The notes under the pieces were generated by a model. The model was given only the letters and a program-made list of their open reading frames with translations. It did no database searches and was not told the DNA's origin. DNA of 61,114 bases, filler included, from an uncultured virus (IMG/VR IMGVR_UViG_2049941000_000596) (lineage: Duplodnaviria; Heunggongvirae; Uroviricota; Caudoviricetes). It is 23 parts of one record of this genome, joined end to end, with 100 filler letters (N's around TTAATTAATTAA, not from the genome) between each part and the next. Parts side by side here need not be neighbours in the genome. Positions count along the whole stretch, not along the records: positions 49,705 to 50,492 come from IMGVR_UViG_2049941000_000596; positions 50,593 to 53,480 come from IMGVR_UViG_2049941000_000596; 21 more parts are not named here. One strand, written 5' to 3'. Shown here piece after piece: positions 230 through 55,108 of this stretch. A program made the translations under genes and the position numbers. Position 1 is the stretch's first letter, and the number at the start of each line of letters is the position of its first letter.

Positions 230-1627
230 TCAAAACTGAATGCTGAAAGCTGTTCCGTCCAAGAACCTGATCTCAAAGGTTGCATTGTCCTTGATAGTAA
301 TGCTTTCCAGTACCGTCAGCACCATCTCTGGAATGATTCTTCTGATCGGTCCGTTTTTAACCAGTGACTGCATCTGCCGAGCTCTTACCGCCTCTAGTTC
401 TGTCCCCGTTCTTTCCATCTCTTCCCAACGTTTACTAAGTGACTCCTGATTTGCAACAACAGTATTCCATGCCTCAACAAACACCCTATTAATTACACTT
501 TCCCGGATATTCACACCTCGGCAGCTTTTCGGCCCATTGTAGCATCGAGTATTACACTGCCAATAGGTCTCTGCTTCCCTTCCGGAGTGGGCTTTTCTAC
601 CGTAAATACAACCGCATTCACCGCAGATAATCTTCTGCGTGAAGGGCCGCACTTCACCACCATACCCATACCTTGACATATTATGTCTATTCATATACTG
701 TTTGATTCGCTCAAATTCCTGTTGCACCGCATTCCACTCATCTCTGGGTATTATTCCTTCATGGCTGTTTTTTACGTAGTACTGAGTAACTTGACCTTCA
801 TTTTTTACCATCTTTCTTGTGAGGTAATCAGAGGTGAAGCTTTTCTGGAGAAGACTATCTCCCATGTATTTCTCGTTTTTGAGCATACCTTCAATAGTGG
901 TTTTCAGCCATCTCGGTTCCCCATTAACCCCTGGTACACCTTCTGCATTCAGCCTAGTGGCAATAACGGTGGCAGTATAACCCTCAAGAAACTCCCTGAA
1001 GATCCTACGAACAAGCTTTGCTTCTTCTTCATTAACAATGAGCCTGCCCTCAGCATCCTGATCAAAGCCCATGAACCTTTTTGCGTTAATATGAGGAATT
1101 CCCTTCTGAAATTTGCTCCGGATGCCCCATTTTGTGTTTTCTGATATGTTCCTGGACTCATCTTGCGCCAGTGAGGAGAGAATCGTCAGAAGAAGCTCAC
1201 CGGTTGTATCTGCGGAACTGATGTTCTCTTTCTCAAACACCACGATGATCCCGAGATTTTTCAGCTTCCGGTAATTCTCAAGGCAATCCTGCGTATTCCG
1301 AGCGAACCTACTGATCGACTTTGTGATTACCATATCGATTTTGTGAGCCTCGCAATCAGCAATCATGCGTTTGAAGTTTTCCCGTTTTTTGGTGCTCGTT
1401 CCACTGATCCCCTCGTCCGCGTAGATGTCCACGAGCTCATATTCAGGATGCTCTTCAATGTATCTGGTGTAGTACTCCACTTGATTACGGAAGGAATTCT
1501 CCTGTTCTTCTTGTTCTGTTGAAACCCGGCAGTAGGCAGCAACTCGGATTTTCTTTTCAGACAGCTGCTTTTTGCCATTTGCCTGTGGCGTCTTTGTGGC
1601 GGGAATAACTGTAACTTCTCTGGCCAT
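230..1627 (-). CDS. Large serine recombinase (resolvase + recombinase + Zn-ribbon)
   Basis: AAYCRVSTEQEEQ catalytic motif, YADEGISGT, TKSISRFARN, SLAQDESRNISEN, LKNEKYMGD, CGECG Zn ribbon; RBS AAGGAGG upstream. Confidence 0.95.
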   Translation of the reverse strand: MAREVTVIPATKTPQANGKKQLSEKKIRVAAYCRVSTEQEEQENSFRNQVEYYTRYIEEHPEYELVDIYADEGISGTSTKKRENFKRMIADCEAHKIDMVITKSISRFARNTQDCLENYRKLKNLGIIVVFEKENISSADTTGELLLTILSSLAQDESRNISENTKWGIRSKFQKGIPHINAKRFMGFDQDAEGRLIVNEEEAKLVRRIFREFLEGYTATVIATRLNAEGVPGVNGEPRWLKTTIEGMLKNEKYMGDSLLQKSFTSDYLTRKMVKNEGQVTQYYVKNSHEGIIPRDEWNAVQQEFERIKQYMNRHNMSRYGYGGEVRPFTQKIICGECGCIYGRKAHSGREAETYWQCNTRCYNGPKSCRGVNIRESVINRVFVEAWNTVVANQESLSKRWEEMERTGTELEAVRARQMQSLVKNGPIRRIIPEMVLTVLESITIKDNATFEIRFLDGTAFSIQF

Positions 1628-3077
1628 GACGGTCCTCCTTCATTCTGATAAAAATATCCTTTTTAATTTCGCCCCAGCCCCGGATCACATCATCTGAGAT
1701 GCGGACTCCCTCACAGAAGGCCCTTCCTTTGTGCTTTCTCCCATTGCAGGTCCACACTGTGTCGCCATGCTTACCAATGATTCTGGTCAGCTTCGAACCG
1801 CATGAACCGCAGAAAATGTGGTCCTTGTAGGGGAAATTTTCGATTGTCAGCTCAGGAGCTATTTTGGCCGGTTCTTTTTTCTGATGCTCCTGAGCCCAGT
1901 TCTTCTCCCGAACATAGCGGAATGTGGTCTTCCCTAGCTCGTCTGTAGTGCTCCGGATAAAAATATTACCGGGCAGCTCACCCCATCCACGGATGACGCT
2001 GTCCGGCACGCTGATGCCTGTACAGAACTTTTTCAAATATCGCATTTCTCCGCTGCAGATCCAGCTTACCCGGTTCCCATTGGAGTACACCCGCCGATAT
2101 AGAGGGAAGCCGCATTCTGCGCAGAAAAGCTGGTTCTTGTAAGGGTAGGTCTCTTCATCCAGCGTCCCTATCACAGATCCGGTTGCTAAATACTCTCTCA
2201 TCTCGGCCAGCTTATCCTGTGCCCGGTCCCATAGCCTTCTGCTGACCAGTGCCGGGTGATCATCTGTAATGTACCAGGCATCCACTTCTCCCCTATTCCT
2301 AACTTCCTTCCGTTCGTCGTTTACGTAGTACTTGTGCATGATGTAATCGCCCTTGTAGATTTCGTTCTCCAGAATTCGAATTACTGTGCTGGAAGTGAAC
2401 TCTGCACCAGCTTTGGTATGCACGCCGTGCTCATTGAGATGACGAGCAATCTGCTGTGGCCTGTACCCATCTGTGCAAAGTTGAAATACTTTCTTCACCC
2501 ACGGTGCTTCTTCCTTGTTTGGCAGGTATTCGCCGTTAGCCCCAAGCTCAAAGCCAAAAGATCGCTCCAAATACTGGACAGGGATTCCGGCCTCGTATTT
2601 CCGATTATAAACCATTTTTCCCAAAGCGCTGTAGTTCTCGCTCTCTGCCTGCGCAAAGGCCGCCAGCACAGTGAGCATGACTTCACCGGATGCAGCAAGC
2701 GTATCGATATGCTGCAGCTCAAAAATGACACCGACACCCAGATCCTTAAGCTCTCGTACAGCTTTCAGAAGGGTGTCGGTGTTCCTGCAGAATCTAGAAA
2801 CAGATTTTGTGATGATGCGATCGATCTCATGATTTCTTGCTGCCTGCAGCATCGCTTGGAATCCCGGTCGTTTTTCTTTGAAACCGGAAATCCCGAAATC
2901 GTGGTAGATGCCCGCAAACTCATATGATGGATTGGACCGGATTGCCGATTCATAGTGTTCCATCTGGTTATTAAGCGAGTTTTCTTGTTCCTCTTCATCG
3001 GTTGAAACACGGCAATATGCACATGCACGAAGCTTTCGCGATTCGTGTACCCAAGGCTCAATAACTTTAATTTCCAT
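1557..3077 (-). CDS. Large serine recombinase with duplicated C-terminal Zn-ribbon
   Basis: CAYCRVSTDEEEQ, ITKSVSRFCRN, AFAQAESEN, LENEIYKGD; two FCxxCG...W.C...FC repeats; overlaps the next gene by 71 nt. Confidence 0.95.
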   Translation of the reverse strand: MEIKVIEPWVHESRKLRACAYCRVSTDEEEQENSLNNQMEHYESAIRSNPSYEFAGIYHDFGISGFKEKRPGFQAMLQAARNHEIDRIITKSVSRFCRNTDTLLKAVRELKDLGVGVIFELQHIDTLAASGEVMLTVLAAFAQAESENYSALGKMVYNRKYEAGIPVQYLERSFGFELGANGEYLPNKEEAPWVKKVFQLCTDGYRPQQIARHLNEHGVHTKAGAEFTSSTVIRILENEIYKGDYIMHKYYVNDERKEVRNRGEVDAWYITDDHPALVSRRLWDRAQDKLAEMREYLATGSVIGTLDEETYPYKNQLFCAECGFPLYRRVYSNGNRVSWICSGEMRYLKKFCTGISVPDSVIRGWGELPGNIFIRSTTDELGKTTFRYVREKNWAQEHQKKEPAKIAPELTIENFPYKDHIFCGSCGSKLTRIIGKHGDTVWTCNGRKHKGRAFCEGVRISDDVIRGWGEIKKDIFIRMKEDRHGQRSYSYSRHKDATGKWQKAAV

Positions 3078-15938: not shown

Positions 15939-15951
15939 NNNNNNNNNNAAT

Positions 15952-15979
15952 GAAAACAGAGCCGGTTTCCCGACTCTGT
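15952..15979 (-). terminator. Intrinsic terminator just after 18-bp site
   Basis: Minus strand ACAGAGTCGG-GAAA-CCGGCTCTGT-TTTC, GNRA tetraloop and T-tract. Confidence 0.75.
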
Positions 15980-15995
15980 CTGAAATATTCAGTTG

Positions 15996-16013
15996 GCTAA
16001 ACTGGGAGTTGTC
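15996..16013 (-). repeat. 18-bp quasi-palindromic site (GACAAC-TCCCAG-TTTAGC)
   Basis: Matches sites at 16084, 50280, 51003, 51321, 51347, 53421. Confidence 0.7.
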
Positions 16014-16083
16014 GAAAAAAATACGCTCTGTTATTCGTAAAACCCCTGAATGGGTCNNNNNNNNNNTAGGTTGTATTCAAATA

Positions 16084-16101
16084 GCTAAACTGGAAGTTGT
16101 C
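16084..16101 (-). repeat. 18-bp quasi-palindromic site (GACAAC-TTCCAG-TTTAGC)
   Basis: Second variant; same upstream sequence as the 15996 copy, different downstream sequence. Confidence 0.7.
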
Positions 16102-16148
16102 GAAAAAAATACGCTCTGTTATTCGTAAAACCCCTGAATGGGTCAGCC

Positions 16149-16626: not shown

Positions 16627-16665
16627 GTCGAGATGGAGTATACCACATTTATCTGTCTTTCGGAA
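16627..16665 (-). promoter_or_regulatory. Sigma-A-type promoter plus start of 18-bp site, downstream of Dit
   Basis: TTCCGA-17bp-TATACT with extended TG; the 19 nt TGGTATACTCCATCTCGAC are identical to 50264..50282; contig breaks inside the site. Confidence 0.65.
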
Positions 16666-16671
16666 GATGCT

Positions 16672-17078
16672 TTATAGCCGTCCCTGCCTATAAGTGAAGG
16701 ACGTTGTTCCTTCTCCCGTAATGGATACCGTGTTCTCCCCATGCCGTAGCTCCAGTTCCGGGATCTCCCACGTTCCCGCACTGACAGTCTTGTGGAAGGT
16801 TTCTCCGTCAACCGACCAACGTAGAGAGGTTTCTGCTGTGGTTGTGATGACCGGCACAACGGGCATGAAGTCATTGTGGAGAGTGACTGAACCGCTGCCG
16901 CTGACACTCTCGACTGTTTCCGACACATAGTAGAGAAAGGCGTCCCCGTCTGTGCAGGAGATTGCAAGCAGACCTTTGCCGGTTTTCGGGTCATAGGTTG
17001 GTTCTGCCTCCAGAGTCCCCAGCGCGTACAGCGTTGGCGCTTCTGTCAGTATTACCCGACAAAGCTGTCCGGCAAACT
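16672..17078 (-). CDS. Distal tail protein (Dit), C-terminal part
   Basis: LHNDFMPVVPVI...ELELRHGENTVSITGEGTTSFTYRQGRL stop, typical siphophage Dit end. Confidence 0.65.
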
Positions 17079-21435: not shown

Positions 21436-21855
21436 TTACAGAACCATCATCAGTGTACCCGCGCCGATCAGTACGCATCCGATCAGAGATTTTGCCGTAA
21501 ACTTCTCGTGCAGGAAAACGAATGCCAACACCAGCGTAATGACGACTGATAATTTGTCAATCGGAACAACCTTTGAGGCATCGCCGATCTGCAAAGCTTT
21601 ATAGTAGCATAGCCATGAAGCACCTGTGGCAAGGCCGGACAGGATCAGGAAAACCCAGCTTTTCTGGCTGATGTCTTTTATCCCGCCTTGCTGCTGCGTC
21701 AAAAAAACCATGCCCCATGCCATGACAACTACAACCATAGTACGAATTGCAGTTGCAAGATTGGAACCGACACCCTCAATTCCAATCTTTGCCAATATGG
21801 ATGTGAGTGCCGCAAAGACTGCAGATCCAAGAGCCAACCAAAACCACATGTTCAT
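21436..21855 (-). CDS. EamA/DMT family membrane transporter (moron)
   Basis: LAKIGIEGV.SNLATAIRT, LILSGLATGASWLCYYKALQ.GDASKVVPIDKLSVV; lower GC than flanks. Confidence 0.9.
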   Translation of the reverse strand: MNMWFWLALGSAVFAALTSILAKIGIEGVGSNLATAIRTMVVVVMAWGMVFLTQQQGGIKDISQKSWVFLILSGLATGASWLCYYKALQIGDASKVVPIDKLSVVITLVLAFVFLHEKFTAKSLIGCVLIGAGTLMMVL

Positions 21856-21923
21856 CCCTCCGCAAATTCAAATAGACTGGCTGTAGCATACCACTGTTTA
21901 TATGATAATGCTACAGCCAACTA

Positions 21924-25174: not shown

Positions 25175-25424
25175 CGATTCCCATGTGGATAATCACCCTG
25201 ATCGGCATAGGCAGTTTTTCATTCTGATAGGCGATCGTCGGTATACCGAATCCCAGACCAATGATCAGACAGCCAACAACCATCTTCGTGAACTGGTAAT
25301 TCTCAAGGCTGAAGTTGCCGCCATCACGAATATCAAAAGCGATGCCAGAGAAACAGAATAGTGCCATTGCAACACCAATGCTGATTACCGTGCTTTTCAG
25401 AATGTCCTTGATTATTTCTTTCAT
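25175..25424 (-). CDS. DUF3021-type membrane protein (partial)
   Basis: Hydrophobic, IIGLGFGIPTIAY...IRVIIHMGI; directly downstream of LytTR gene. Confidence 0.65.
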
Positions 25425-25435
25425 TTTTGCTCCTC

Positions 25436-25873
25436 CTATAGTCCAAGATATTTCTTGAATTCTGGTAAATACGTCCTCGACACATAATCCTTACAGCCAT
25501 TTCTGAGTTTCAGAAGCAGCGTGCCGCTGAATCCAGATTCAACACTGTCCATATAGGACAGGTTGACCAATGTGGATTTTGAAATCTGCATAAACTGTTT
25601 TCCCAATTGCTGGCCGAGTTCATACAGCCTCTTCCTCGACCGATACTTTTGCTGCTTCCCATAAATAATCGTATCTCCGTTCTCAACCCTGATCATATAA
25701 ATATCCTTTGGCTGCAGGATGATCAGATCCTCCTCGTTCAGTAGAGCAGTTATTGGGCTTTCGCTATTACCAAACGCCTCAATCACTCGTTGTATATCAT
25801 CCGTCATTTGGCTGGTATAGATCACAGCATACGGCTCGGTGTATGCAGGGGAAATTTCCACACTTATCTTCAT
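25436..25873 (-). CDS. LytTR-only transcriptional regulator
   Basis: IYMIRVE, RKRLYEL, FMQISKSTLVNL, LKLRNG.KDYVSRTYLPEFKKYLGL. Confidence 0.85.
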   Translation of the reverse strand: MKISVEISPAYTEPYAVIYTSQMTDDIQRVIEAFGNSESPITALLNEEDLIILQPKDIYMIRVENGDTIIYGKQQKYRSRKRLYELGQQLGKQFMQISKSTLVNLSYMDSVESGFSGTLLLKLRNGCKDYVSRTYLPEFKKYLGL

Positions 25874-26026
25874 GCCCTGAGCTCCTTTCGCTTTGATGGC
25901 CATATAATACATCAAAGTGGGAGCTTTGTGTTGCATTTTAAGGTAAGTGGCGAAAAAACGAAAGTGAAATGCAAAATACCCATGTACAAAGCCTCGGAAC
26001 AGATGAATGCTCCGAGGCTTAAAGAT

Positions 26027-26201
26027 CATGATTTCCCGAACAGCAACACTGTCAGCCGGTCCAGCGCCCGGTTCTTCCGCTTGTACGCGGTGGGCTGCTC
26101 GATGTGCAGATACTCGGCAATGTAGTAGGCCGCGCTGCTGCCGTAGGTGTTGCCGTCACCATAGAAGGTCTCGAGGCAATACCGGTCATCGTCGGAAAGC
26201 T
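26027..26201 (-). CDS. Sigma-region-4-like HTH protein, C-terminal fragment
   Basis: Manual translation LSDDDRYCLETFY...IAEYLHIEQPTAYKRKNRALDRLTVLLFGKS stop; followed by hairpin 25989..26020. Confidence 0.55.
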
Positions 26202-46252: not shown

Positions 46253-47063
46253 NNNNNNNNNNCGGCTTCATCGTCGGGTGCAGATCATTCTTTTTGGGTT
46301 TATCATATTCCCACACCGTGGTCTGCTTCCGGTCCGCATACCACTGATGCCGACCGCCTTTCTTCCAGCCGAAGAGCACGGGCTCATGGAGCCATTGGTA
46401 TGGGCTCCGGCCCAGCACCAGACTGTTCTTTTTCCAGATGCAGCAGCCGGAAAGATAAAAGCCAGCCTCTTCAAATGCTCTCCGAAAGGCCAGCCCGTGT
46501 GAATCGCTGTGGAAAACATAAATGGACGCATCGTCCATCATGTTCTGTTCCATATTGACATATGCGGCAAAGAGGAACTTTTCAAACTGCTCTTCTGCCA
46601 TTTTATCGTTTTTGATCTTACCGGCGGAGCCTTCATAATCCACGTTGTACGGAGGGTCCGTCACCACAAGATTGGCCTTCCTGCCCGCCATCAGCAGATC
46701 GTAGGTCTCCGGCAGCGTGCTGTCGCCGCAGACGAGCNNNNNNNNNNNNNNNNNNNNNNNNNNNNNNNNNNNNNNNNNNNNTTAATTAATTAANNNNNNN
46801 NNNNNNNNNNNNNNNNNNNNNNNNNNNNNNNNNNNNNTCGCAACGCGGGAATCAGGGTCATGCTGCAGGCAGTCGGTGACGACGGCATCGCTGATCTGAT
46901 CGCAGATTTTATCCGGGTGTCCNNNNNNNNNNGGAATCAGGATCATGCTGCAGGCAATCGGTGACGACGGCATCGCTGATCTGATCGCAGATTTTATCCG
47001 GGTGTCCGTCCGACACCTGCTCACAGGTAAGAATTCTCATTGCTATCGCTCCTCATGAAAAAT

Positions 47064-49704: not shown

Positions 49705-50192
49705 AGCAGCCACAGGTCCCCTTCCCGGGTGACGGTCGGCTGCTGCAGCTGGGCTTCGATATCGAACTCATCCTCTACGATCTCTTTGTCGTGAACGGAA
49801 TTCATGAGCTGCTCGATCTCCGGAGGATCAAAACCGGTGAAGGTCACATCGAAATCCGAATCCTGCAGCTCCGCGATCAGATCGGCCAGGAGTTCCTTGT
49901 TCCACTCGCCGGTGATCTTGTTCAGCGCAATGTTCAGGGCACGCTCCTTGGTTTTATCGATATCGATCACAATGCAGTCGATCTCGCTGTAGCCCAGGTC
50001 CTTCAGCACGGTCACCCGCTGGTGGCCGCCGATAATAGTCATATCGCTGTTTACGATGACCGGCTCACAGTACCCGAATTCTTCAATGCTGCGTTTGATC
50101 TTTTCATATTCTTTATCGCCGGGTTTCAGGGCCTTCCTCGGGTTGTACGAAGCAGGCACCAGATCCGCGATCTTGATTTTTCTTAGGTCCAT
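49705..50192 (-). CDS. ParB-domain DNA methylase, N-terminal part (variant 1)
   Basis: PASYNPRK, IKRSIEEFGY, IIGGHQR, ALNIALNKITGEW; variants 50593..50916 and 52914..53333. Confidence 0.85.
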
Positions 50193-50243
50193 GGATGTAC
50201 TCCTTTGGGTATAAAAATAGCGGCCCTTGTTAGAGTCGCCTTA

Positions 50244-50297
50244 TTGTGCACGATAGGGTTTTATGGTATACTCCATCTCGACAACTCGGGATCTTTA
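50244..50297 (+). promoter_or_regulatory. Divergent sigma-A promoter + 18-bp site (variant 1)
   Basis: TTGTGC-17-TATACT with extended TG, then GACAAC-TCGGGA-TCTTTA. Confidence 0.72.
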
Positions 50298-50967
50298 GGG
50301 ATAATATTCTGAATAGTATNNNNNNNNNNCCCTTCCAGCATGATCTTGTAAAACTCCTTGCTGGCCGGAGACATGTCCTTATATCCCTGCCCGAAAGGAA
50401 CCATCGTCAGGCCCTCGTCGATCAGGTTCTGCACCAGCATGGTGGCGTTCCATCGGTCATAGGCGATCTCAAGCACATGGTACTTTTCACAGNNNNNNNN
50501 NNNNNNNNNNNNNNNNNNNNNNNNNNNNNNNNNNNNTTAATTAATTAANNNNNNNNNNNNNNNNNNNNNNNNNNNNNNNNNNNNNNNNNNNNGTCTGCAA
50601 TCAGGTCGGCCAGAAGCTCCTTGTTCCACTCGCCGGTGATCTTATTCAGCGCGATGTTCAGGGCACGCTCTTTGGTTTTATCGATATCAATCACGATGCA
50701 GTCGATCTCGCTGTAGCCCAGATCCTTCAGCACGGTCACACGCTGGTGGCCGCCGATAATAGTCATGTCGCTGTTTACAATGACCGGCTCACAGTATCCG
50801 AACTCCTCAATGCTGCGCTTGATCTTTTCATACTCTTTATCGCCGGGTTTCAGGGCCTTCCGCGGGTTGTACGAAGCAGGCACCAGCTCTGCGATCTTGA
50901 TTTTTCTTAAATCCATGGATTTACTCCTTTGGGTATAAAAATAGCGGCCCTGGTCAGAGTCGCCTTA

Positions 50968-51020
50968 TTGTGCACGATAGGGTTTTATGGTAAAATCATC
51001 TCGACAAATCGGGATTTGAC
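50968..51020 (+). promoter_or_regulatory. Divergent sigma-A promoter + 18-bp site (variant 2)
   Basis: TTGTGC-17-TAAAAT with extended TG, then GACAAA-TCGGGA-TTTGAC, immediately RBS GAGGT and ATG 51033. Confidence 0.75.
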
Positions 51021-51032
51021 GAGGTAAGACAA

Positions 51033-51312
51033 ATGACCATCCAAACAGTTGAACANNNNNNNNNNNNNNNNNNNNNNNNNNNNNNNNNNNNNNNNNNNNN
51101 NNNNNNNNNNNNNNNNNNNNNNNNNNNNNNNNNNNNNNNNNNNNNNNNNNNNNNNNNNNNNNNNNNNNNNNNNNNNNNNNNNNNNNNNNNNNNNNNNNNN
51201 NNNNNNNNNNNNNNNNNNNNNNNNNNNNNNNNNNNNNNNNNNNNNNNNNNNNNNNNNNNNNNNNNNNNNNNNNNNNNNNNNNNNNNNNNNNNNCTCTGAA
51301 TGCAAAGTATAG
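51033..51312 (+). CDS. Putative cassette gene (mostly N gap)
   Basis: MTIQTVE start with RBS; ...SECKV TAG end 8 bp before the next 18-bp site. Confidence 0.35.
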
Positions 51313-51320
51313 ATTTGATT

Positions 51321-51364
51321 GATAAATGTCAGTTTATCGGGATGACGCAAAATCGGGATTTGCA
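51321..51364 (+). repeat. Two tandem 18-bp quasi-palindromic sites
   Basis: GATAAA-TGTCAG-TTTATC (perfect arms) and GCAAAA-TCGGGA-TTTGCA, 8 bp apart. Confidence 0.65.
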
Positions 51365-51499
51365 AAGGAGATTGCAATTAAGGAAAAGCAATCATAACGA
51401 AATCGAAATAAGAGATGCATATCAATGGAGAATATACTGCATCTTCCGAAAAAACAGATTCTGTGCTATAACAGGTAATCAAAAAAGGAGATTATACAC

Positions 51500-51676
51500 A
51501 TGAACACTATGTCAATTGTATCCACAGTCTTAACAATTCTTTTGCTTGGCTTCCTGTATTGGAGGATGGTGAAGAGAGAGATTCCGGAGCCTGTCGGCTG
51601 GTTGCAGGCTCTGCTTCCCATTGCTATCGGCATGCTGTCGATGCCTATGACAATTCCAGTTTCCATGGGCTACTTA
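51500..51676 (+). CDS. Membrane protein, N-terminal fragment (putative cassette cargo)
   Basis: Two hydrophobic segments; RBS AAGGAG; promoter TTCCGA-17-TATAAC at 51444..51472. Confidence 0.55.
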
Positions 51677-51687
51677 NNNNNNNNNNG

Positions 51688-51890
51688 CATCTGTTCCTGA
51701 TCGGTGAGGCTGGCAGCGGCAAGAGCACTACCTTGGAAAAAGTGGTGCTGCCGATCTTCTCTACGAGCAGAGTGACCGCGGCAACCCAGGTGACGCAGTT
51801 TACGCTGATGAAGGAGAGCGCTTCCTCCAATCTGGTGCCCATGGCGCTGGACGAGTTCAAGCCGTCCAAGATCGACCGGCTGAAGATCAA
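51688..51890 (+). CDS. Primase-associated helicase P-loop fragment
   Basis: HLFLIGEAGSGKST Walker A, ALDEFK Walker B. Confidence 0.7.
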
Positions 51891-51900
51891 NNNNNNNNNN

Positions 51901-52062
51901 GTCGTCCCAGCTCAGGCCGCCGGTCTTATCCACCGTGAAGCCGCCGATGCGGTAGGCCATGGTCGGAACGCCTTCGTAGGTGCCTTTCTCGCCGGTGGCG
52001 TGGGTAATGATGCTGACAAGTCTCTTGCGTTCGCTTCCGGTAACGTTGAAATTGATGTTCAT
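51901..52062 (-). CDS. Phage protein commonly labelled virulence-related, N-terminus
   Basis: NVTGSERKRLV..I....G....Y.GVPTMAY.IGGFTVDK.G; RBS AGGAGG; preceded by repeated unit. Confidence 0.6.
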
Positions 52063-52115
52063 GGGGTGCCTCCTAAAAATGTAATGTCCGCGGGGTTCTC
52101 CCCTTCGGCATGTTC

Positions 52116-52201
52116 ATATTCGCTCTACTCTGCCTATATAGCAAGTTAATTCGGAGGCATAATGTAGACAAAGATTCACAGCTATTATTGTTCATAATAC
52201 A
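52116..52201 (-). promoter_or_regulatory. Repeated operator-promoter unit, copy 6
   Basis: TGTATTATGAACA-N18-TGTCTACATTATG-N13-TTGCTA-N12-AGAGCGAATATG; distal arm overlaps the methylase stop. Confidence 0.7.
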
Positions 52202-52893
52202 GCAGTTTTTGCCGCGTTTTTGACTGCTTCTGCATATGAAATCTTCTGTCCATCCCGGACCAAGAAGATCTGCTCATCGCTGCCGACCTGGGCCAGATAC
52301 CGATTGACGATCACATCAGCATACTTCGGGTCCAGCTCAACCGTATAGCAGATACGCTTCAACTGGTCCGCCGCGATGAGGGTGCTGCCGGAGCCTCCGA
52401 AGGGGTCCAGCACAATGCAGTTGCTCATGGAGCTGTTCTTGATCGGATAGGCGATCAGGTTTACAGGCTTCATCGTCGGGTGCAGATCGTTCTTCTTGGG
52501 TTTATCATATTCCCACACGGTGGTCTGCTTTCGGTCCGCATACCACTGATGCCTGCCGCCCTTCTTCCAGCCAAAAAGGACAGGCTCGTGCAGCCATTGG
52601 TACGGGCTCCGGCCCAGGACCAGACTGTTCTTTTTCCATATGCAGCAGCCTGAAAGATAAAAGCCAGCCTCTTCGAATGCTCTCCGAAAGGCCAGCCCGT
52701 GAGAATCTGAGTGAAAAACATAAATGGACGCGTCGTCCATCATGTTCTGCTCCATATTGACATATGCGGCAAAGAGGAATTTCTCAAACTGCTCCTCCGC
52801 CATTTTATCATTTTTGATCTTCCCGGCAGAGCCTTCATAATCCACATTGTAAGGCGGGTCGGTCACCACCAGATTGGCCTTTCTCCCGGCCAT
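52192..52893 (-). CDS. N6A/N4C DNA methyltransferase domain (C-terminal part of ParB-MTase)
   Basis: TDPPYNV, IWKK, HPTMKPV, VLDPFGGSGST, ELDPKYADVI; variant 46263..46737. Confidence 0.92.
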   Translation of the reverse strand: MAGRKANLVVTDPPYNVDYEGSAGKIKNDKMAEEQFEKFLFAAYVNMEQNMMDDASIYVFHSDSHGLAFRRAFEEAGFYLSGCCIWKKNSLVLGRSPYQWLHEPVLFGWKKGGRHQWYADRKQTTVWEYDKPKKNDLHPTMKPVNLIAYPIKNSSMSNCIVLDPFGGSGSTLIAADQLKRICYTVELDPKYADVIVNRYLAQVGSDEQIFLVRDGQKISYAEAVKNAAKTAVL

Positions 52894-53385
52894 CAGGATA
52901 CCGNNNNNNNNNNCTCAACGATCTCCTTGTCATGAACGGAATTCATGAGCTGCTCGATCTCCGGAGGATCAAAGCCGGTAAAGGTCACATCGAAATCCGA
53001 ATCCTGCAGCTCAGCGATCAGATCGGCCAGCAGCTCCTTGTTCCATTCGCCGGTGATCTTGTTCAGCGCAATGTTCAGGGCACGCTCTTTGGTTTTATCG
53101 ATCTCGATCACGATGCAGTCGATCTCGCTGTAGCCCAGGTCCCTCAGCACGGTCACGCGCTGATGCCCGCCGATGATGGTCATGTCGCTGTTCACGATGA
53201 TCGGCTCACAGTATCCGAATTCCTGAATGCTACGTTTGATCTTCTCATATTCTTTATCTCCGGGTTTCAGGGCCTTCCTCGGATTGTACGAGGCGGGCAC
53301 AAGATCCGCGATCCTGATTTTTCGTAGGTCCATGGATGATCTCCTTTGGGTATAAATAATAACAGCTCCTTCAGGAACTGCATGA

Positions 53386-53438
53386 TTGTACATAATTGGG
53401 TTTTGTGGTATAATCAGCCCGTCAACTCGGGATTTATA
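53386..53438 (+). promoter_or_regulatory. Divergent sigma-A promoter + 18-bp site (variant 3)
   Basis: TTGTAC-17-TATAAT with extended TG, then GTCAAC-TCGGGA-TTTATA. Confidence 0.75.
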
Positions 53439-53580
53439 GGGATGATCATTTCTCTTATAAACAGGCACTAAGATGCGAGGNNNNNNNNNNNNNNNNNNNN
53501 NNNNNNNNNNNNNNNNNNNNNNNNTTAATTAATTAANNNNNNNNNNNNNNNNNNNNNNNNNNNNNNNNNNNNNNNNNNNN

Positions 53581-54030: not shown

Positions 54031-55108
54031 TCATAACAGAGGAACGGCATCGTCGATATCAAAACCTGTGACGTCGCAGCGCTCCATCAGCAGGCCATAG
54101 TTGATCACCCAGAACTTGGCGTTGACGCCGTTCAGCTTCTTCTGCACGTTTGCCTGAATGAAGATGTCCGAGTGGCTGAGCTGCTTCTTGAATTGGGCGT
54201 AGGTCAGCACTTCCCCGACGATCGCGTAGTCTTTCCGGTACTTCGTGTACTTGTCATAGACCGAGGACAGCCGGATAAAAAGCTGCGTGCGATCGTCACT
54301 CAGGCAGTAGTCCACCTTCGGGTCCAGGCCCATGCGGCTCATGATCTCAAAGGTCTGCTCCACGACGCTGGTGTTGTTGATGCCGCCGTCCAGCAGGTAT
54401 TCCTTCGCGCCGTACTCCAGATAGCGGATGCAGGCGTCAAAGCTGTACGGGAACACATCGGACCATGACAGCCCTGCCCTCGTACACATAGCCTCGACCA
54501 GCTTCAGCCCTGCATGGCAGCAGGCCAGGTTGCTGATCACCCTGCTGGGCATCTCCTTCGTAAAGACGCCGAGTCCATCCTTATACCAGGACGCCGCTTC
54601 CTCCGGCTGTATGCGCAGCGCTGTATCCAGCAGCGTCCGGCCCAGATCCTGCAGCGTCTTTTCGTTTGCCTCAATCCGGCGAAAGCACGCTGCCTGATCG
54701 GGTTTCTTCAGATCCTTCTTGGAAAACAGGAGCTCCACGCTGCGTTCCCGGATTGCCGCCTCGTCCGGCGACTCCTCCCCNNNNNNNNNNAAGCTCCACG
54801 CTGCGTTCTCGGATTGCCGCCTCGTCCGGCGACTCCTCCCCTGCCGTTACCAGTGGAGCCAGCAGGTGATAAACGATCATGGTCTGATCTGCCCGGCCGC
54901 GGACGCCATCATGGCCGTCATAGCTGTCGCGGAAATGGTTATAGAGGGCGTTGATCTTCAGCCGGTCGATCTTGGACGGCTTGAACTCGTCCAGCGCCAT
55001 AGGCACCAGATTGGAAGAAGCGCTCTCCTTCATCAGCGTAAACTGCGTCACCTGGGTCGCCGCGGTCACCCTGCTCGTAGAGAAGATCGGCAGCACCACT
55101 TTTTCCAA
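54031..55108 (-). CDS. Primase-helicase C-terminal fragments
   Basis: RDSYDGH.GVRGRADQ, APLVTAGE, ends ...DAVPLL stop; variant 60556..60762. Confidence 0.7.

Follow-up and report, generated by a model that had tools for sequence, protein, structure and literature searches.

In this analysis of a 61,114-nt stretch of DNA from an uncultured member of the Caudoviricetes (the window), we examined a locus upstream of a ParB-methylase gene that, at a probability of about 0.5, we read as a moron bounded by mobile regulatory or junction modules, with cargo that would be exchanged by recombination at these modules, much as proposed for the PeSLs of T4-type phages. Such a moron would be an expression slot for accessory genes, inserted between two phage genes. 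Its left module comprises a putative TG-extended -10 promoter and, at about +1, a quasi-palindrome of 16–18 bp that has an invariant TCGGRAT centre and abuts the ribosome-binding site (RBS) of the cargo. The right module holds a related motif with a complementary centre, often lying over the cargo stop codon and followed in the tail-gene slot by a predicted intrinsic terminator. The same modules bound a slot between the tail genes Dit and Tal, as well as small accessory genes (many encoding GNAT proteins) in Lachnospiraceae chromosomes. Recombination with one end point in these short shared modules would swap the cargo.

The window strings together small scaffolds, with 22 linkers (N44-TTAATTAATTAA-N44) and many 10-N gaps. 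The assembly is fragmented and includes several related prophages, and many phage fragments are present two or three times at 87–97% identity to one another. Its gene content, according to Pfam, includes siphovirus-type tail proteins, serine recombinases and a Cro/CI-type HTH protein. Three contigs (49705-50319, 50593-51055 and 52914-53480) carry the three promoter-plus-site variants v1, v2 and v3 (Table 1), which the original prediction took for strain variants and which we ascribe to assembly fragmentation. The anatomy that it described was confirmed: each 18-bp site is present, with a TG-extended -10 located 6–7 bp before it and a TTGTRC hexamer 17 bp upstream of the -10, and v2 has the predicted RBS and ATG of a cargo gene (gene A), two more TCGGGAT cores and then an open reading frame (gene B). 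It had also described v1 and v2 as nearly identical up to the site and unrelated beyond it. The sites are as described, but the contigs stop 22 bp (v1), 35 bp (v2) and 42 bp (v3) past the site, so little variable cargo is visible in the window alone and the divergence has a thin sequence basis. By alignment, v1 and v3 are alike even downstream of the site. Continuations of the v1 and v3 cargo were not found in the window or in any locus examined, and a Pfam scan assigned no family to gene B.

Table 1. Features of the ParB-methylase and Dit-Tal slots in the window
Feature	Position	Strand	Basis and details
ParB_N-methylase gene copy 1, 5' part	49707..50192	-	Pfam ParB_N E 1e-8; contig 49705-50319
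v1 left module	50244..50297	+	TTGTGC 50244-50249; TG-extended -10 50264-50272 (hexamer 50267-50272); 18-bp site 50280-50297
ParB_N-methylase gene copy 2, 5' part	50593..50916	-	Pfam ParB_N E 5.7e-8
v2 left module	50968..51020	+	-35-like 50968-50973; -10 50991-50996; site 51003-51020
Cargo gene A, RBS and start	51022..51055	+	Sequence; ATG 51033; N238 gap truncates gene
Two internal sites	51331..51362	+	Cores 51337-51343 and 51353-51359; no promoter hexamers; AAAGGAG run next
Cargo gene B, partial	51500..51676	+	ORF; 59 codons, hydrophobic
ParB_N + N6/N4 DNA methylase gene, copy 3	52195..53333	-	Pfam N6_N4_Mtase E 6.7e-29, ParB_N E 4.9e-9; 10-N gap 52904-52913
Terminator-like hairpin	53362..53381	-	8 pairs, T-rich tail; between putative moron promoter and ParB-methylase RBS; different sequence at this position in v1 and v2
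v3 left module	53386..53438	+	-35-like 53386-53391; -10 53409-53414; site 53421-53438; scaffold ends 53480
Window's own Dit-Tal slot, left	16627..16672	-	Dit gene end, same -10 module, first site bases
Right module of Dit-Tal slot, two variant copies	15950..16110	-	Cargo end and right junction motif (TTCCAGTTTAG type)

Inside the window, neither motif nor promoter rises above chance. TCGGGAT occurs 11 times (9.6 expected), a 15-mer with up to three mismatches occurs 8 times (4.6 expected, with 8 reached in 7 of 100 shuffles) and a simple sigma-70 consensus scan lists 4 promoter-like sites (3.9 expected). The sigma-A promoters proposed before each site have their hexamers, but v3 (10/12 with TG) is the only one of the three that passes the consensus scan. 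Since the -35 of v1 and v2 matches at 3/6 positions, these two promoters depend on the extended -10. From these elements, we infer promoter activity of the left modules. That the site is more than a chance match follows from evidence outside the window.

Flanked by an HTH/zinc-ribbon gene and the ParB-methylase gene, the slot is oriented opposite to both. In most of the relatives seen, the upstream gene directly adjoins the methylase, and neither promoter nor site was found at any of 80 genome loci encoding ParB-methylases of 53–82% identity. Copy 1 is 96.8% identical over 588 bp to a viral contig locus (L029) and copy 3 is 96.3% identical to L057. In L029, a promoter, site and RBS precede a gene for a 248-aa YoaP/GNAT protein, beyond which minus-strand genes resume. 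The translated start of gene A resembles the N-terminus of this protein, and part of the cargo difference may thus represent diverged versions of one gene. Across the viral and metagenome collections, the promoter pattern matched a single contig (the source of L029, L057 and L058), and an exact 20-mer from the gene B leader had no match among viral contigs. Several leads were discarded. Distant phage relatives from a v3 blastn search of the phage collection (43 records, including Ca. Heliusvirales gut phages and Streptococcus phages) aligned in the coding part only, and the methylase lay in a co-directional operon without an insert in the two that were inspected. A 16-mer from the RBS region hit 54 viral loci, with L029 the only close one and the others weak or absent in blastn, and 21 weak matches of the 46-bp leader in the plasmid collection (E 3-9) were taken as chance.

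A second slot, between Dit and Tal, has the same 29-bp -10-plus-site module, and the v1 29-mer is identical to the copies in L139, L140 and L142. Both empty and occupied states are observed here: 9 of the 19 Dit loci in related contigs are empty, with the Dit stop overlapping the Tal start, and 10 are occupied, by eight different cargos in gaps of 422–2131 bp (where Tal was found). Cargo is bounded by the site on the left and by a related motif with a predicted terminator on the right. Homology among occupied loci stops 2–3 nt past TCGGGAT and restarts at the right motif. As a counterpoint, two of the occupied loci break away from the module edges, L144 inside the left arm (with the right motif absent) and L153 upstream of the -10. 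L146 is a two-gene array in the order site, DUF4180 gene, site overlapping the stop codon, GNAT gene and right motif, and v2 follows the same plan with a promoterless internal site. In the window's own slot, the contig breaks within the site at 16627, and its module matches the left module of L139-L148. The right modules, one copy of which has a terminator hairpin, share 90–94% identity with L139, L143 and L146. A right-motif scan of viral contigs returned 14 loci, comprising 7 known Dit-Tal slots and 7 unrelated coding matches.

The motif is also enriched across the family Lachnospiraceae. The 16-mer GAYAAMTCGGRATTTG had 47 matches in 43 of 401 Lachnospiraceae-family genomes (1 for the reversed control), compared with 4 in 201 phylum-wide genomes (2 for the control). 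Of thirty motif loci retrieved, 23 were intergenic, 15 of them with a Shine-Dalgarno-like run no more than 5 nt after the motif. Copies in family genomes mostly stand just ahead of the RBS of small accessory genes, many encoding GNAT acetyltransferases, and two motifs flank a gene at four loci (L182, L188, L189 and L179). In one array (G375, compared at genus level in 4 genomes), the junction behind the first gene consists of right motif, terminator, promoter and site, giving a second promoter and terminator inside the array. The promoter-leader stretch of this junction recurs, visibly similar, before the first array gene, and its 82-bp right motif plus terminator recurs at 89% behind another gene. 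The arrays comprise 2 genes in phages and ~7 in one genome, and only some of their junctions hold an element.

Homology breaks were observed at the edges of the motif. The homology shared by L187 and L190 stops at the last motif base, that of L195 and L203 begins at the first, and that of L195 and L139 begins 3 nt ahead of the motif. These breaks, in related phages and bacterial genomes, agree with the expectation that alignments would break at the site, and sites recur at junctions of the L146 and G375 arrays and on both sides of the two-motif genes. Sites were found not only at transcription starts; promoterless copies lie between genes and others at gene 3' ends, so the refuting outcome named in the original prediction, hits confined to transcription starts, did not occur. 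The YoaP genes of L029 and G375 are 75% identical, and since this identity is confined to the coding region, the cassette has not recently moved with its flanks. A short palindromic junction motif is common to gut and rumen Lachnospiraceae and their phages, at points where swappable accessory genes begin.

In public metagenomes, the v2 left module matched 20 runs from 12 studies, including bovine gut and gut metagenomes, and the contigs of the four metagenome runs that were aligned agree in the 30 letters beyond 51055. A single contig from a single run (X1; 323 nt, depth 16.8) joins 51005 straight to 51350 via 13 shared letters, and among the contigs listed this site-to-site joint alone spans the N238 gap (51056-51293). 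Logan contigs are built from 31-letter words. Since 13 shared letters fall short of such a word, the joint is not an obvious graph artefact.

We infer that recombination takes place within the motif, and we consider general or phage-encoded recombination, homologous or by short homology, more likely than a dedicated enzyme, with the counterpoint that 16 bp of identity is short for RecA-type recombination. The cargo differences among phages could also stem from ordinary crossovers in the flanking conserved genes, with no role for the motif. Alternatively, the palindrome might serve as a core site at which a trans-acting site-specific recombinase or an HUH-type transposase excises and inserts single-gene cassettes in Lachnospiraceae chromosomes and their phages, a dedicated system akin to integron cassettes, Acinetobacter dif modules or transposase-less insertion cassettes. 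This is a possibility to be taken seriously, if an unlikely one. The motif occurs at both ends of single genes, direct or inverted (L179, L182, L189 and L146), and without a promoter between co-transcribed genes, and a stop codon lies in or no more than 3 nt from its left arm at 7 of the 10 junctions read (L146, L147, L148, L153, L029 and two of G375). Breaks at its first or last base and the joint through 13 shared letters would suit such an enzyme, as would a centre that is invariant while the arms vary, expected if partners must match in the crossover region, and the complementary centres of left and right motifs.

However, no candidate for this enzyme emerged in the window or consistently near the sites. 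Pfam scans of 80 + 11 window ORFs or fragments detected no IntI-type tyrosine recombinase and no Phage_integrase match; the only recombinases found were two large serine enzymes at the far end of the window (233-3077). Likewise, no recombinase occurred consistently in the 1.5 kb around each of the 23 intergenic sites, where two loci had tyrosine-integrase fragments and one a Mutator transposase with Mob_Pre. At 16–18 bp, the motif is also shorter than any recombinase core site known to us. Furthermore, many cassettes are equipped with a promoter and terminator of their own, and modules of 75–170 bp are repeated, which fits homology-driven spread; no empty-module form was seen among the loci. 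The original prediction had likened the locus to an integron, and in the strict sense this does not hold, given these self-contained cassettes and the absence of both IntI and attC-like sites; its own remark that GTTRRRY cores and IntI were missing agrees with our scans, in which the junction motifs (16–18 bp, or up to ~30 bp including the right-hand extension) had neither GTTRRRY nor RYYYAAC cores. The co-occurring recombinase that it suggested looking for was not found with the sites, and the tyrosine recombinase that it proposed for the 6+6+6 geometry is pure conjecture. The broader notion of a cassette-capture hotspot survives in part: cargo varies behind the promoter-palindrome in near-identical phages and one contig joins site to site, but no enzyme accompanies them. 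We are doubtful of an integrase-free cassette exchange in which a trans-acting enzyme moves single genes between chromosomal arrays of Lachnospiraceae and fixed slots of their temperate phages (upstream of the ParB-methylase gene and at Dit-Tal) at 18-bp palindromic junctions, whose left and right forms have complementary centres; such a system would include, as an outlying member, the leader of the Campylobacter coli cat cassette.

It is less probable again that the palindrome is purely regulatory, an operator, roadblock or leader signal that travels with genes, plays no part in recombination and serves a DNA- or RNA-binding protein, specific to the family, that regulates accessory genes. Its size and symmetry suit a dimeric HTH operator, and in the phage slots its position is about +1 relative to the promoter, but no -10-like hexamer occurs within 32 nt at 14 of the 23 intergenic sites and internal sites follow stop codons, so the position expected of a repressor operator was not found. 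HTH_3 (XRE-type) genes lie near 4 of the 23 (L176, L187, L188 and L202). The motif is co-oriented with the downstream gene and abuts its RBS in 15/23 cases, against 8/23 in which an RBS or start is missing. In the predicted v2 RNA fold (-8.8 kcal/mol), the RBS pairs with conserved bases upstream of the site; nevertheless, all seven leaders folded no better than shuffles (z -1.7 to +0.9, none below -2) and their structures differed. Rfam searches of 10 loci at permissive thresholds found nothing at the motif. A CsrA-bound leader (GGA in a hairpin loop and GGA in the RBS) was considered and rejected, as csrA (PF02599) is present in 20 of the 43 motif-bearing genomes and in 213 of all 401. Moreover, identical 16-mers before unrelated genes across species call for common descent and not function alone. 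Finally, it is very improbable that poor assembly, through mis-joins or collapsed repeats, produced the variants with their diverging tails and that there is no biology at the site. In favour of this, the window is built of tiny gapped scaffolds with 2–3 copies of many fragments at 87–97% identity, and of the four contigs that stop at the site, three do so no more than 42 bp past it and one inside it. This reading is already contradicted because the modules recur in independent viral contigs, one metagenome contig and genomes of other species, and v2 is reproduced through and past the site by contigs from four runs of four studies.

Exact-string and term searches, with most matches judged by title, found no published description of the motif, and a term search on gene cassettes in Lachnospiraceae returned nothing relevant. 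Exact-string matches to 12-mers of the motif included a synthetic terminator and a cat-cassette primer. The motif is also present in a chloramphenicol-resistance cassette that is a routine tool of Campylobacter and Helicobacter genetics, which makes its function testable in these existing systems. Gut and rumen Lachnospiraceae are major commensals whose trade in accessory genes with phages is poorly understood. A searchable motif that marks swap points for acetyltransferases, an aminoglycoside-acetyltransferase-like gene, hydrolases and regulators offers a handle for cataloguing this mobile gene pool. It can also predict slots for lysogenic conversion by phages, and makes it possible to ask directly whether the exchange is driven by regulatory modules or by a new recombinase.

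Our preferred reading, a moron with exchangeable cargo, shares features with several known systems. As in integrons, one promoter stands ahead of a co-directional array of small genes with an element at junctions, and GNAT cargo is common. In contrast to integrons, which to our knowledge are essentially absent from Firmicutes, there is no IntI, and the 16–18 bp element has no GTTRRRY cores or folded attC structure; attC sites are imperfect palindromes of 60–140 bp with GTTRRRY and RYYYAAC cores. In addition, elements lie at only some junctions and a promoter and terminator belong to many of the individual cassettes; L146 and v2 have a promoterless internal site. Morons of lambdoid and HK97-like phages were reportedly described by Juhala, Hendrix and colleagues around 2000. 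Classical morons are autonomous promoter-gene-terminator units between adjacent phage genes, with individual, unrelated promoters and terminators. The present locus likewise inserts between genes that adjoin in relatives, has empty and occupied states and carries accessory cargo probably expressed from the prophage, but here one set of boundary modules is common to many cargos, at both slots as well as in host genomes.

On Acinetobacter plasmids, dif modules have 28-bp XerC/XerD sites (PMC6449649, PMC13141974). As far as the accessible parts of these reports describe them, they resemble our loci in that short palindromic sites, often inverted, bound accessory genes that have no recombinase gene of their own and are shuffled between replicons, whereas our motif is shorter, at 16–18 bp. 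The two are probably unrelated. Promoter reuse and putative mobile promoters have been surveyed generally (PMC3575422), and here too near-identical promoter-leaders precede non-homologous genes within and between genomes; the accessible text of that survey has no junction motif, right-hand partner or phage slots. PeSLs (promoter-early stem-loop cassettes) are short conserved promoter/terminator composites that flank non-essential genes in plastic regions of T4-type phages; they coincide with the indels and replacements that distinguish close phages, and recombination between copies has been proposed as the cause (Arbiol et al. 2010, PMC2839356; Comeau et al. 2014, PMC4122927). Similarly, repeated promoter and terminator composites flank accessory ORFs here (the G375 junction and the 82-bp repeat at 89%). 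Compared with the PeSL phages as portrayed in those excerpts, T4-type lytic myoviruses, ours are temperate siphoviruses of Firmicutes, the modules are common to host chromosomes, and the most conserved part is a 16–18 bp palindrome that also stands alone between genes, without promoter or terminator. Since the window is of siphovirus type, with serine recombinases and a Cro/CI-type HTH protein, we regard the locus as functioning like a PeSL rather than as a member of that class.

The safest statement is that Lachnospiraceae and their phages have a cassette-junction element in common, with the site as its core, and that the locus upstream of the ParB-methylase gene is a moron slot with such elements as borders. 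The original prediction had placed three sites 6–7 bp behind TG-extended -10 hexamers, and all were found in the sequence as claimed, together with an RBS and ATG at 51033 in v2 (the second of the three regions), two extra site cores (51337 and 51353) and an ORF at 51500. The three supposed variants of one region are three separate contigs (v1, v2 and v3). Each has a 5′ fragment of a gene for a ParB_N-plus-N6/N4 methylase, with the region upstream of it, and they end 22, 35 and 42 bp past the site, respectively. No continuation of the v1 or v3 cargo turned up elsewhere in the window or in any locus. A simple promoter scan listed the v3 promoter, but neither of the other two. Since the motif is no more frequent in the window than expected by chance and the scan listed v3 only, the window alone supports far less than was claimed. 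In v3, a hairpin with a T-rich tail separates the ParB-methylase RBS from the moron promoter, its stem differing in sequence from those at the matching position in v1 and v2; minus-strand transcripts would end there, immediately ahead of the methylase gene. Each promoter also has a short palindrome overlapping its -35 region, which could be a second operator or, as the neighbouring gene encodes a DNA methylase, a methylase target.

The 61-kb window contains 22 six-frame-stop linkers (N44-TTAATTAATTAA-N44) and many 10-N gaps, which makes it more than one molecule: small scaffolds of a fragmented assembly, strung together. Mapping of the window against L057, a related viral contig of 13.9 kb, showed phage regions to be repeated two to three times at 87–97% identity, indicating pieces of several related phage copies; methylase and P-loop fragments are examples of these diverged duplicates. 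In 80 open frames scanned with Pfam, the gene set was that of a temperate siphovirus (tail, portal, capsid and terminase pieces, CHAP endolysin, family A DNA polymerase, SNF2 helicase and a Cro/CI-type HTH protein) with a few bacterial fragments mixed in. The EamA transporter, LytTR regulator and DUF3021 protein pieces probably come from host or other-element contigs put in the same scaffold chain. A pair of large serine recombinase genes ends a contiguous 9.9-kb prophage piece and adjoins a CHAP/PG-binding endolysin gene.

Scanning species-representative genomes, we found 80 loci with a gene for a related methylase (53–82% identity), none of which has either the promoter or the site. In most relatives among the matches listed, an HTH/zinc-ribbon gene directly abuts the methylase start, and gut phages matched in the phage collection have the same insert-free arrangement. 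The viral contig L029 (= L057, L058) is 96.8% identical to v1 as far as the site, past which come an RBS, an ATG and a gene on the plus strand whose 248-aa product has YoaP and GNAT domains, before the minus-strand phage genes start again. Judged from sequence, the ParB slot holds an inserted accessory gene that has a predicted promoter of its own and is opposed to the operon direction.

A second slot emerged when the -10-plus-site pattern matched three more viral contigs, in which an identical 29-bp stretch lies co-directionally between Dit (distal tail) and Tal (tail-associated lysin). Among 19 usable loci from a Dit protein search, the slot was empty in nine, the Dit stop overlapping the Tal start, and occupied in ten (422–2131 bp in the nine with a Tal start found), in viral and genome samples that are small and phylogenetically clustered and with the occupied loci being closer relatives. 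The inserts have in common a left and a right module, the latter with a strong predicted terminator hairpin of 11 pairs, and between the two lie eight different cargos. In pairwise alignments, homology between occupied loci is lost 2–3 nt past TCGGGAT and regained at the right motif, except in L144, which diverges within the left arm and has neither a full left site nor the right motif, and L153, which diverges ahead of the -10 and keeps the right motif. The window has a Dit–Tal slot of its own.

Features of the two slots and of the window (positions along the window unless a locus is named)
Feature	Position	Strand	Detail
Hairpin with T-rich tail, v3	53362-53381	-	between moron promoter and ParB-methylase RBS
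Counterpart of hairpin, v1	50225-50243		
Counterpart of hairpin, v2	50949-50967		
Palindrome over -35 region, v1	50244-50255		GTGCAC
Palindrome over -35 region, v2	50968-50979		GTGCAC
Palindrome over -35 region, v3	53386-53397		TGTACA
Left module of Dit–Tal inserts			about 70 bp; Dit stop, -10, site
Right module of Dit–Tal inserts			about 85 bp; TTCCAGTTTAG-type motif, predicted hairpin terminator, new Tal RBS
Dit–Tal cargo			66-aa protein
Dit–Tal cargo			203-aa membrane protein
Dit–Tal cargo	L144:3354-5339		662-aa protein, six DUF4379 treble-clef zinc-finger repeats
Dit–Tal cargo			GNAT
Dit–Tal cargo			DUF4180 + GNAT
Dit–Tal cargo			cNMP-binding regulator + alpha/beta hydrolase
Dit–Tal cargo			DUF2961 protein
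Dit–Tal cargo			Mor + DUF1062
Window Dit–Tal slot, left side	16627-16672	-	contig broken within site
Window Dit–Tal slot, right modules	15950-16110	-	two variants
Two adjacent large serine recombinase genes	233-3077	-	Resolvase, Recombinase, zinc-ribbon domains
EamA transporter, LytTR regulator, DUF3021 protein fragments	21439-21867 and 25176-26155	-	among phage pieces
Methylase copies	46263-46736 and 52195-52902		diverged duplicates
P-loop fragments	51688-51888 and 54791-55108		diverged duplicates

The motif is not confined to phages. We searched the 16-mer GAYAAMTCGGRATTTG in 401 genomes from the family of one host-like Butyrivibrio genome, and obtained 47 matches in 43 genomes compared with a single match for the reversed pattern; the corresponding numbers in a phylum-wide sample of 201 genomes were four and two. 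Of 30 loci inspected, 23 were intergenic, five lay in hsdS-like ORFs on the opposite strand and two in other coding sequence. An SD-like run follows within 5 nt in 15 of the 23 intergenic loci, and a co-oriented ORF of at least 60 codons begins within 40 nt in at least ten; a -10-like hexamer is present up to 32 nt upstream in nine and absent from 14. The neighbouring genes have accessory functions, including seven GNATs across six loci, an aminoglycoside 3-N-acetyltransferase-like protein, glyoxalase, thioesterase, NUDIX and HIT proteins, methyltransferases, hydrolases and XRE/MerR regulators. Two motif copies flank genes in four loci, as direct (L182, L188, L189) or inverted (L179) repeats. 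Homology between genomes ends or begins at the motif: L187 and L190 have a methyltransferase gene end plus motif in common and diverge past its last base, the alignment of L195 with L203 starts at its first base, and that of L195 with the cargo of phage locus L139 starts 3 nt ahead of it.

The bacterial genome G375 links the two phage motifs. Its co-directional run of small genes encodes a membrane protein, an epimerase, a 205-aa protein, a GNAT, an AAC(3)-like protein, an XRE regulator and a YoaP protein (75% DNA identity to the L029 cargo), and the junctions comprise phage-type left sites, phage-type right motifs and intermediate forms. Therefore, the left and right motifs are variants of one quasi-palindromic element, with arms of 6–7 bp and a centre of 4–6 bp in two complementary orientations. 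One junction runs from right motif through terminator and promoter to left site, a predicted composite terminator/promoter. The promoter-leader stretch is repeated, visibly similar, upstream of the array's first gene, the right motif plus terminator recurs elsewhere behind an unrelated GNAT gene (89% over 82 bp), and a third place holds a decayed YoaP remnant with its 3′ element still attached.

Several further observations concern individual motif loci. G294 (L187/L208) has two copies, separated by 1.2 kb, of a 114-bp RNA uracil-methyltransferase 3′ gene end plus motif, which enclose a gene for an XRE regulator and an ORF of 101 aa, and in G070 the same gene end plus motif terminates an intact 493-aa gene. 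In the hsdS-like loci (type I restriction; L177, L178, L191, L199 and L200), 30 of 32 bases match the v2 leader (50998-51029), and in one of these loci hsdS fragments adjoin a gene for a tyrosine recombinase; the motif may have originated there, or the match may be coincidence. Fragmented homologous tyrosine-integrase genes end 50 nt (L180) and 16 nt (L192) from the motif, in opposite orientation relative to it; since the homology stops short of the motif, the latter resembles target DNA on the flank and not an att core.

Arrays are also found in the phages. In L146, two cargo genes have a second site copy between them, which is without a promoter and overlaps the first gene's stop codon; v2 is organized alike, its sites at 51331-51362 lying upstream of gene B. 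The v2 left module occurs in 20 public runs of 12 studies, among them bovine gut and gut metagenomes. When contigs of four bovine-gut or gut metagenome runs (four studies) were aligned to 50593-51676, those of all four runs extended beyond 51055 with identical letters, which makes the v2 cargo reproducible. In one run (X1), a 323-nt contig joins 51005 straight to 51350 through 13 letters shared by both sites, as would be expected of loss or gain of the first cassette between two copies of the site. Among the matches listed, contigs have loose ends at or inside a site (51319, 51339) and away from sites (51422, 51537, 51545, 51636). This 13-letter joint, the breaks at motif edges, the internal copies without a promoter and the stop codons built into the element make a dedicated site-specific system that moves cassettes at the motif a serious rival. 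No recombinase was a regular neighbour within 1.5 kb of the 23 intergenic sites. Because no dedicated enzyme is in sight and whole promoter/terminator modules are repeated, we favour recombination at short regulatory or junction modules common to the copies, through which cargo would be exchanged.

A purely regulatory motif would account for its position ahead of the RBS, but leaves identical 16-mers ahead of unrelated genes, and orphan copies, unexplained. No Rfam family matches the motif loci, and the folds of seven leaders differ, none being better than shuffles; the predicted v2 fold would bury the RBS. A CsrA double site was rejected: among the matches listed, csrA was present in 20 of 43 motif-bearing and 213 of all 401 genomes, completeness being unstated. 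Literature searches returned no description of the element, and in string searches of papers the motif was present, among the matches listed, only inside primers. The Campylobacter coli cat cassette is a resistance cassette in wide use. Primer 5705, antisense to the C. coli cat gene of plasmid pRRC (PMC3994027), contains the reverse complement of the motif with the RBS directly behind it, and thus the cat cassette has the same leader. Finally, an assembly artefact is excluded by independent records.

Recombination at common modules remains our favoured reading, with promoters, terminators and recombination events all deduced computationally. At 16–18 bp, the motif is shorter than the 28-bp dif sites, and recombinases are not known to use core sites this short; like classical morons, the slots would be expression units inserted between two phage genes, but with boundary modules common to many different cargos. 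By analogy, the favoured mechanism would resemble that of PeSLs, the mobile promoter/stem-loop cassettes of T4-type phages, for which recombination at short regulatory modules is reported (PMC2839356, PMC4122927).
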